Shown: positions 54,001 to 57,454 of the stretch, in pieces
Layout of the letters: each line of letters starts with the position of its first letter
Position numbering within the stretch: position 1 is the stretch's first letter
Position numbers and translations under genes: made by a program
Assembly (NCBI RefSeq): GCF_003334785.1
Contig: NZ_QOWV01000006.1
Direction: 5' to 3' (one strand)
DNA length: 64,000 nt
DNA from: Escherichia coli
GTDB lineage: Bacteria > Pseudomonadota > Gammaproteobacteria > Enterobacterales > Enterobacteriaceae
Notes under the pieces: generated by a model
The model's database searches: none
Told to the model about the DNA's origin: nothing
What the model saw: only the letters and a program-made list of their open reading frames with translations

Positions 54001-54202
54001 TTATAAATTAATACAGATTAATCCTGGTTATTTGCTTTATTTATCACCAGTCATCCGGTATAGTTCTTCATAATCTCTGCAAAATCATCGTGTTGTAATA
54101 TTCTCTCATCACTCTCCATCAAATTTTCTTTTTTTCTCCATAATTGGCGCAAAAGTGTTTTTTACACTTTCATTGTTTTACCGTTGCTCTGATTAATTGA
54201 CG

Positions 54203-54896: not shown

Positions 54897-56397
<1,501 letters not shown>

Positions 56398-56410
56398 TGT
56401 TGACTCCGAA

Positions 56411-56430
56411 TGCTGGTTATCTATCCAGTG
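56411..56430 (-). promoter_or_regulatory. Non-canonical LexA (SOS) box CTGG-N8-CCAG upstream of cho
   Basis: Minus-strand cactggatagataaccagca, 14-33 nt upstream of cho ATG. Confidence 0.6.
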
Positions 56431-56483
56431 TAACAGGCGGGAAGCGATTAAAAAAGAGGCGGGTCGATGACAAAGGTTACACC

Positions 56484-56590
56484 GTCTGACGTGCTACGCC
56501 TGTCAGGCCTATTCGACTCCTGCAATGTATTGAATTTGCATAGTTTTATAGGTCGAATAAGGCGTTCACGCCGCATCCGGCGTGAACAAA
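56484..56590. repeat. BIME/REP cluster between cho and nadE
   Basis: cctgtcaggcct ... ctgcaatgtattgaatttgcatagttttataggtcg ... gttcacgccgcatccggcgtgaac. Confidence 0.65.
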
Positions 56591-56626
56591 TTACTCTTTT
56601 TCGCACAATCCAATATGTGCAAATTA

Positions 56627-57454
56627 TTACTTTTTCCAGAAATCATCGAAAACGGTAATTGGCGGACGGCGTTTATGTTCGGTTTTCAGATACCAGTTCT
56701 CTATTGTTCTGGCGACCTGTTGAGGTACGTTTTTCCCTTCCAGATAGTCGTCGATATTGTCATAGGTCACGCCGAGTGCCACTTCATCTGGCAGAGAAGG
56801 GCGATCATCTTCCAGATCGGCCGTTGGCGCTTTCTTATAAAGGTGTTCCGGGCAAGCTAATGCCGCCAGTAACTGTTTACCCTGACGTTTGTTGAGACGA
56901 TACAGCGGATTAATGTCCGTACCGCCGTCACCATATTTAGTGAAGAATCCGGTAATGGCTTCTGCTGCATGATCGGTGCCCACCACGACACCGCTGGTCA
57001 TACCCGCAATGCTATATTGTGCTTTCATCCGCTCACGCGCTTTTTCATTGCCACGGACAAAATCGCTCAGTTCAATGCCTGCTTCCCGCAATGCCTGTTC
57101 GCTGGCCAATACCGCGCCCTTGATATTAACGGTTAATACGCGATCCGGTTGAATAAAGGCAATGGCATCCTGGCAATCTTGTTCGTCGGCCTGAACACCA
57201 TAGGGCAGGCGTACGGCAATAAATTGCAGTGATTCGTTGCCGGTTTCCAGGCGCAGCTCATTAATCGCCATCTGGCACAGCTTTCCGGCAAGCGTGGAGT
57301 CCTGACCGCCGCTGATCCCGAGCACCAGTGATTTAATGAACGGATAAGTTTGCAGGTAGCTTTTCAGAAAATCGACACTACGACGAATTTCCTCTTCAGC
57401 ATTAATCTGCGGTTTTGCGCCCAGCGCCTTTATTATTTGTTGTTGCAATGTCAT
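56627..57454 (-). CDS. nadE: NH3-dependent NAD+ synthetase NadE, 275 aa
   Basis: Track ORF; SGGQDS PP-loop motif. Confidence 0.9.

Follow-up and report, generated by a model that had tools for sequence, protein, structure and literature searches.

The LexA operator of cho (ydjQ) has been described before. Its motif was printed as the 25-mer TACACTGGATAGATAACCAGCATTC among those of UV-induced genes (Thomassen et al. 2010, PMC3009722 Table 4), and a 2019 review places 'cho (ydjQ)' under 'Known SOS box' (PMC6590174), with Fernandez de Henestrosa 2000 and Courcelle 2001 as its sources. With a heterology index (HI) of 7.5, the cho box stands next to those of lexA (7.4) and ruvA (7.6) and is better than those of uvrD, dinG, ftsK, dinB and polB (PNAS 2024, PMC11228462), and it falls under the usual HI limit of 15 (PMC11002266, PMC11228462). 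The consensus-like boxes of umuD (HI 2.1) and recN (HI 3.5) are tighter than that of cho (PMC11228462).

Expression of the gene under damage has also been reported. When cells were treated with AZT and analysed by RNA-seq, cho expression was 5.1-fold lexA-dependent, yet AZT did not itself induce the gene (0.77-fold; PMC11228462). In a ciprofloxacin time course, the log2 fold change of cho was 0.92 at 10 min and reached a peak of 1.59 (PMC11002266), and UV induction measured by qPCR was 2.4-fold in exponential phase versus 36.6-fold in stationary phase (2026 preprint). The Salmonella homologue, ydjQ, was 3.33-fold up with nalidixic acid and has a box with an HI of 6.69; the fluorescence of a ydjQ-gfp fusion was undetectable (PMC8072944).

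The DNA analysed here is a 64-kb stretch of Escherichia coli sequence (hereafter, the window), in which cho occupies positions 55510..56397 on the minus strand, begins with GTG and encodes a 295-amino-acid protein homologous to UvrC. The gene was identified from the list of open reading frames and from its RefSeq annotation ('excinuclease Cho'), together with a match of the protein to the NCBIfam equivalog NF007833 at 579.7 bits (cut-off 367) that covers residues 1-287; UvrC models scored below their own cut-offs on the same protein. Its 5' neighbour on the same strand is nadE (56627..57454, minus strand; open reading frame list and RefSeq annotation), and the order of genes in this part of the E. 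coli chromosome is astE-spy-ves-cho-nadE-osmE-chb (chbB in the RefSeq annotation). Every one of the 5,426 complete E. coli genomes had a match to a 2.1-kb stretch round the site, and in 1,813 the identity was at least 99%. At the other end of the gene, ves (plus strand) and cho (minus strand) converge, and their 3' ends share 41 bp (55510-55550).

The operator lies inside the 229-bp nadE-cho spacer. Read directly on the minus strand, positions 56430..56411 give CACTGGATAGATAACCAGCA; within this 20-mer the core dyad CTGG-N8-CCAG spans 56428..56413, and the whole is identical to the cho box printed in Table 4 of PMC3009722. It is separated by 13 nt from the GTG start codon at 56397, and the Shine-Dalgarno sequence GGAG (56404..56407, minus strand) lies 6 nt 5' of the same codon. 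Both CTG and CAG are intact in the 20-mer and are separated by the 10-bp spacer GATAGATAAC, which has 7 A/T; it is the fourth base of each half-site that departs from CTGT/ACAG. An earlier note on this DNA, made from the letters alone, had put a non-canonical SOS box ahead of cho at 56411-56430 on the minus strand, 14-33 nt upstream of the gene and with two deviant half-sites. Its 20-mer and coordinates proved exact, the distance matches the annotated start, both deviations were found at the fourth base, and the box it proposed is the one printed in PMC3009722 and listed as known in PMC6590174. The 20-mer is, in short, the already published LexA operator of cho, and there is nothing new in its identity. 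A Dcm site (CCWGG) has been described in the lexA promoter (PMC9210283); such a site within the cho operator was ruled out and the idea dropped, because the 20-mer contains neither CCAGG nor CCTGG.

To place the box on a scale of motif strength, we derived a symmetrised LexA weight matrix from 17 boxes of Thomassen et al. 2010 Table 4 (PMC3009722), with cho excluded. On this matrix the cho 20-mer scored 19.3-19.4 bits. When each published box was scored with a leave-one-out matrix, cho ranked 11th of 18, between sulA and lexA, and outscored ruvA, ftsK, uvrD, dinG, dinB and polB. Of the same 18 boxes, 15 have T and 3 have G as the left fourth base; for its right partner, 11 have A and 7 have C, and both deviations occur together in two, ruvA and cho. 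On these counts CCAG is a common variant and CTGG a rarer one, and the double deviation is not unique to cho, because ruvA likewise carries CTGG-N8-CCAG.

Species-representative genomes were then scanned with the Cho protein, yielding 80 Enterobacteriaceae loci, 79 of which include upstream DNA, and the best match to the LexA matrix was sought at each locus within 200 nt 5' of the start codon. In every one of the 79 species a CTG-N10-CAG box was found 11-16 nt before the cho start, with scores from 13.1 to 24.9 bits. The start codon itself is almost always GTG at these loci, and the GGAG Shine-Dalgarno sequence is kept in nearly all of the upstream regions. When the 79 sequences were aligned on the dyad, CTG and CAG were essentially invariant and the spacer between them AT-rich and variable; DNA farther upstream was unconserved, save for two blocks. 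Within Escherichia, the 20-mer was unchanged in six of seven aligned sequences, across divergent lineages whose flanks differ.

A few observations on individual genomes can be added. In one E. coli isolate (538, NZ_OW967795.1; locus L084) CTGG has become CTTG, a change that aligns to 56426, the invariant G of CTG; this variant would be expected to bind LexA more weakly and to raise the basal expression of cho. A 66-mer covering 56395-56460 lacked a match in 11 of 5,426 E. coli genomes; among the 5,415 genomes that did match, four fell within the 90-95% identity band and two of the matches were on plasmid-labelled records.

The fourth bases behave differently from the CTG and CAG that flank the spacer. 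Among the 79 orthologous boxes, 48 have G and 31 have T as the left fourth base; on the right, 50 have A, 28 have C and one has T. The G/C pairing seen here is present in 24 species, mostly Escherichia, Salmonella and Citrobacter, alongside T/A in 26 and G/A in 24. Judged by these alignments, the site is strongly constrained while the two 'deviant' bases are free to vary, and this free variation argues that CTGG/CCAG is not a tuned feature but reflects drift within what the LexA motif tolerates. That the box is universal among the Enterobacteriaceae examined, while its 'non-canonical' bases vary, is a small comparative addition to the published record.

Conservation also bears on the promoter. 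The bases CTG(C/T)TA(C/T)ACT are near-invariant in the 79 species, and this holds also for their TG and TA, which fall outside the LexA 20-mer. We infer from this that the conserved TGnTAYACT is an extended -10 element overlapping the box; in the window it would be TGtTACACT (56427..56435, minus strand), with the TG at 56435-56434 and the hexamer TACACT at 56432-56427, and the last four bases of this sequence are the first four of the 20-mer. Most species read G-C-TAYACT ahead of the box (56427-56436), with C at -13, where E. coli has T. A scan of 56300-56750 for sigma-70 promoters (at a threshold of 9 of 12) and for terminators found neither.

Farther upstream, per-column conservation across the 79 species picked out GCCTCTTTTTTAA (56448..56460, minus strand), which is the 3' arm, with the T-tract, of the intrinsic terminator of nadE, because in several genera, and at loci such as L017, L019 and L022, a clean GC hairpin immediately 3' of nadE ends in it. 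In E. coli this hairpin is disrupted and degenerate, with a REP element upstream. Since GCCTCTTTTTTAA also stands at the position expected for the cho -35 element, the promoter of cho seems to use some of the same DNA as the terminator of nadE. A REP-type palindromic unit, GCCGGATGCGGCGTGAACGCCTTAT, is present in two identical copies on the minus strand, at 56557-56581, inside the nadE-cho spacer, and at 63703-63727. The 191-nt nadE-cho spacer RNA folds far better than shuffled sequences (z = -4.9).

Taken as a whole, the 20-mer is almost certainly the LexA operator of cho, acting by classical SOS repression, probably through promoter overlap, with intermediate strength and modest induction. 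The sequence, position, motif score and conservation on which this reading draws were computed here, and the SOS-box listing, the lexA dependence and the induction are taken from the literature. In an undamaged cell, a LexA dimer would sit on the CTG-N10-CAG dyad, which probably overlaps both the -10 element of the cho promoter and its likely transcription start. Bound LexA would thereby occlude RNA polymerase; this overlap and occlusion we infer. Upon DNA damage, RecA-stimulated self-cleavage of LexA would free the operator and allow cho to be transcribed, and an operator of intermediate strength would be expected to give an induction that is modest in amplitude and not delayed. On this reading the LexA motif would tolerate G and C as fourth half-site bases, which would drift from one species to another and not be a dedicated tuning device. 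Against the reading as a whole count the lack of cho induction by AZT, although expression in that study did depend on lexA, the undetectable fluorescence of the Salmonella ydjQ-gfp fusion and the negative sigma-70 scan.

A different role for the same two bases can be drawn from the promoter. A G two bases after the putative -10 hexamer (TACACT-GG) would, as a discriminator base, make a favourable contact with sigma region 1.2, and a C at -13 before the -10 element (G-C-TAYACT) resembles the sigma-S type of -10 consensus; the discriminator and sigma-S rules are said to go back to Haugen in 2006, Becker and Hengge-Aronis in 2001 and Weber in 2005. The non-canonical bases might accordingly serve the promoter, as a discriminator G beside a sigma-S-like -10 element, and make the response of cho to SOS depend on growth phase. 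If this were true, the operator would double as promoter DNA and the G/C deviations would not be neutral. The conserved TGnTAYACT does overlap the box, 48 of the 79 species have a fourth-position G, most species have C at -13, and the preprint's values for cho after UV, 36.6-fold in stationary phase against 2.4-fold in exponential phase, point the same way. However, the -10 element is itself putative, E. coli carries T and not C at -13, and the fourth-position G cannot be required, because T stands there in 31 of the 79 species. Nor is the stationary-phase effect specific to cho, because the same preprint shows uvrA, uvrB and umuDC to be more strongly induced in that phase too. We therefore consider a promoter duty for these bases unlikely.

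The LexA-operator reading must also be set against a proposal about timing. The earlier note had expected the deviant half-sites to mean weaker LexA binding and, with it, induction of this backup excinuclease late or after severe damage; as a rival explanation, CTGG/CCAG would have been selected to weaken LexA so that the nuclease is induced only under those circumstances. The first half of this expectation stands in a restricted sense: cho deviates at both fourth positions, and its HI of 7.5 is worse than those of umuD and recN (PMC11228462), so binding may well be weaker than at consensus-like boxes, but the box is mid-regulon by HI and 11th of 18 by matrix score. The failure of AZT, a mild replication inhibitor, to induce cho (PMC11228462) would suit a requirement for severe damage. 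The second half found no support. With ciprofloxacin, cho was already up at 10 min, as were most SOS genes, albeit at low amplitude, and the authors of that time course concluded that HI tracks amplitude and not timing (PMC11002266). The step from a weak box to late induction also reverses the classical SOS model, because there it is the tight, low-HI operators such as umuDC that are tied to late expression, a link quoted from Goodman 2016 and Lima-Noronha 2022. ruvA, which shares CTGG-N8-CCAG, belongs in a review's order of induction to a group that follows the uvr genes and precedes the polymerases. Finally, the G/C pairing is present in just 24 of the 79 species, and operator strength is not fixed at one weak value, because the orthologous boxes span 13.1-24.9 bits. 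Selection for weakness as a delaying device is, on this evidence, very improbable.

The remaining question is whether so short a palindrome needs an explanation at all. The bare CTGG-N8-CCAG, with its eight specified bases, has three copies in the window where 0.65 would be expected, and two of 100 shuffles reach three; this count is unremarkable and uninformative alone. The whole 20-mer is far beyond chance. It is the top match in the 64-kb window, the runner-up reaching 11.4 bits, and none of 200 first-order Markov simulations attained the cho score, the null maximum having a mean of 11.9 bits and a standard deviation of 2.2. To the idea that the palindrome is a chance occurrence with no regulatory role we give next to no credence: the bare dyad, found thrice, is not significant by itself, but the full 20-mer stands 8 bits over any other site in the window and over all 200 nulls, its position is kept in 79 of 79 species, and damage induction and lexA dependence are already in print, so that conservation and expression data effectively refute this reading.

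Two further matrix matches in the window were considered as additional SOS boxes. The second-best match, GACTGGTGATAAATAAAGCA, lies at 54033-54052, about 235 nt upstream of spy, and scores 11.4 bits, and the next, at 62295-62314, scores 10.5 bits. Both were rejected, since the null maximum reaches the same level.

As the almost certain LexA operator of cho, the site points to the standard SOS-regulated cho promoter in the window and carries little importance beyond annotation. Set against the catalogued cho/ydjQ operator (Fernandez de Henestrosa 2000, Courcelle 2001), it is the same site, ahead of the same gene in the same organism, with no difference. Its closest relative within the regulon is the LexA box of ruvAB, CGCTGGATATCTATCCAGCA, which shares with it both the CTGG-N8-CCAG double deviation and a GCA 3' end and is of near-equal strength (HI 7.6 versus 7.5 for cho; 18.6 versus 19.3-19.4 bits on the leave-one-out matrix); the two boxes differ in the gene they serve, in spacer sequence and in promoter context. 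With the consensus TACTG(TA)5CAGTA, as represented by umuDC, sbmC and recN, the cho box has in common the CTG-N10-CAG framework, an AT-rich spacer and a 20-bp extent. Relative to that consensus, T is replaced by C at positions 1 and 19 and by G at position 6, A is replaced by C at position 15, and spacer position 10 also departs in being a G. The cho box scores about 8 bits under boxes of the consensus type, whose published fold-induction is likewise higher than that of cho.
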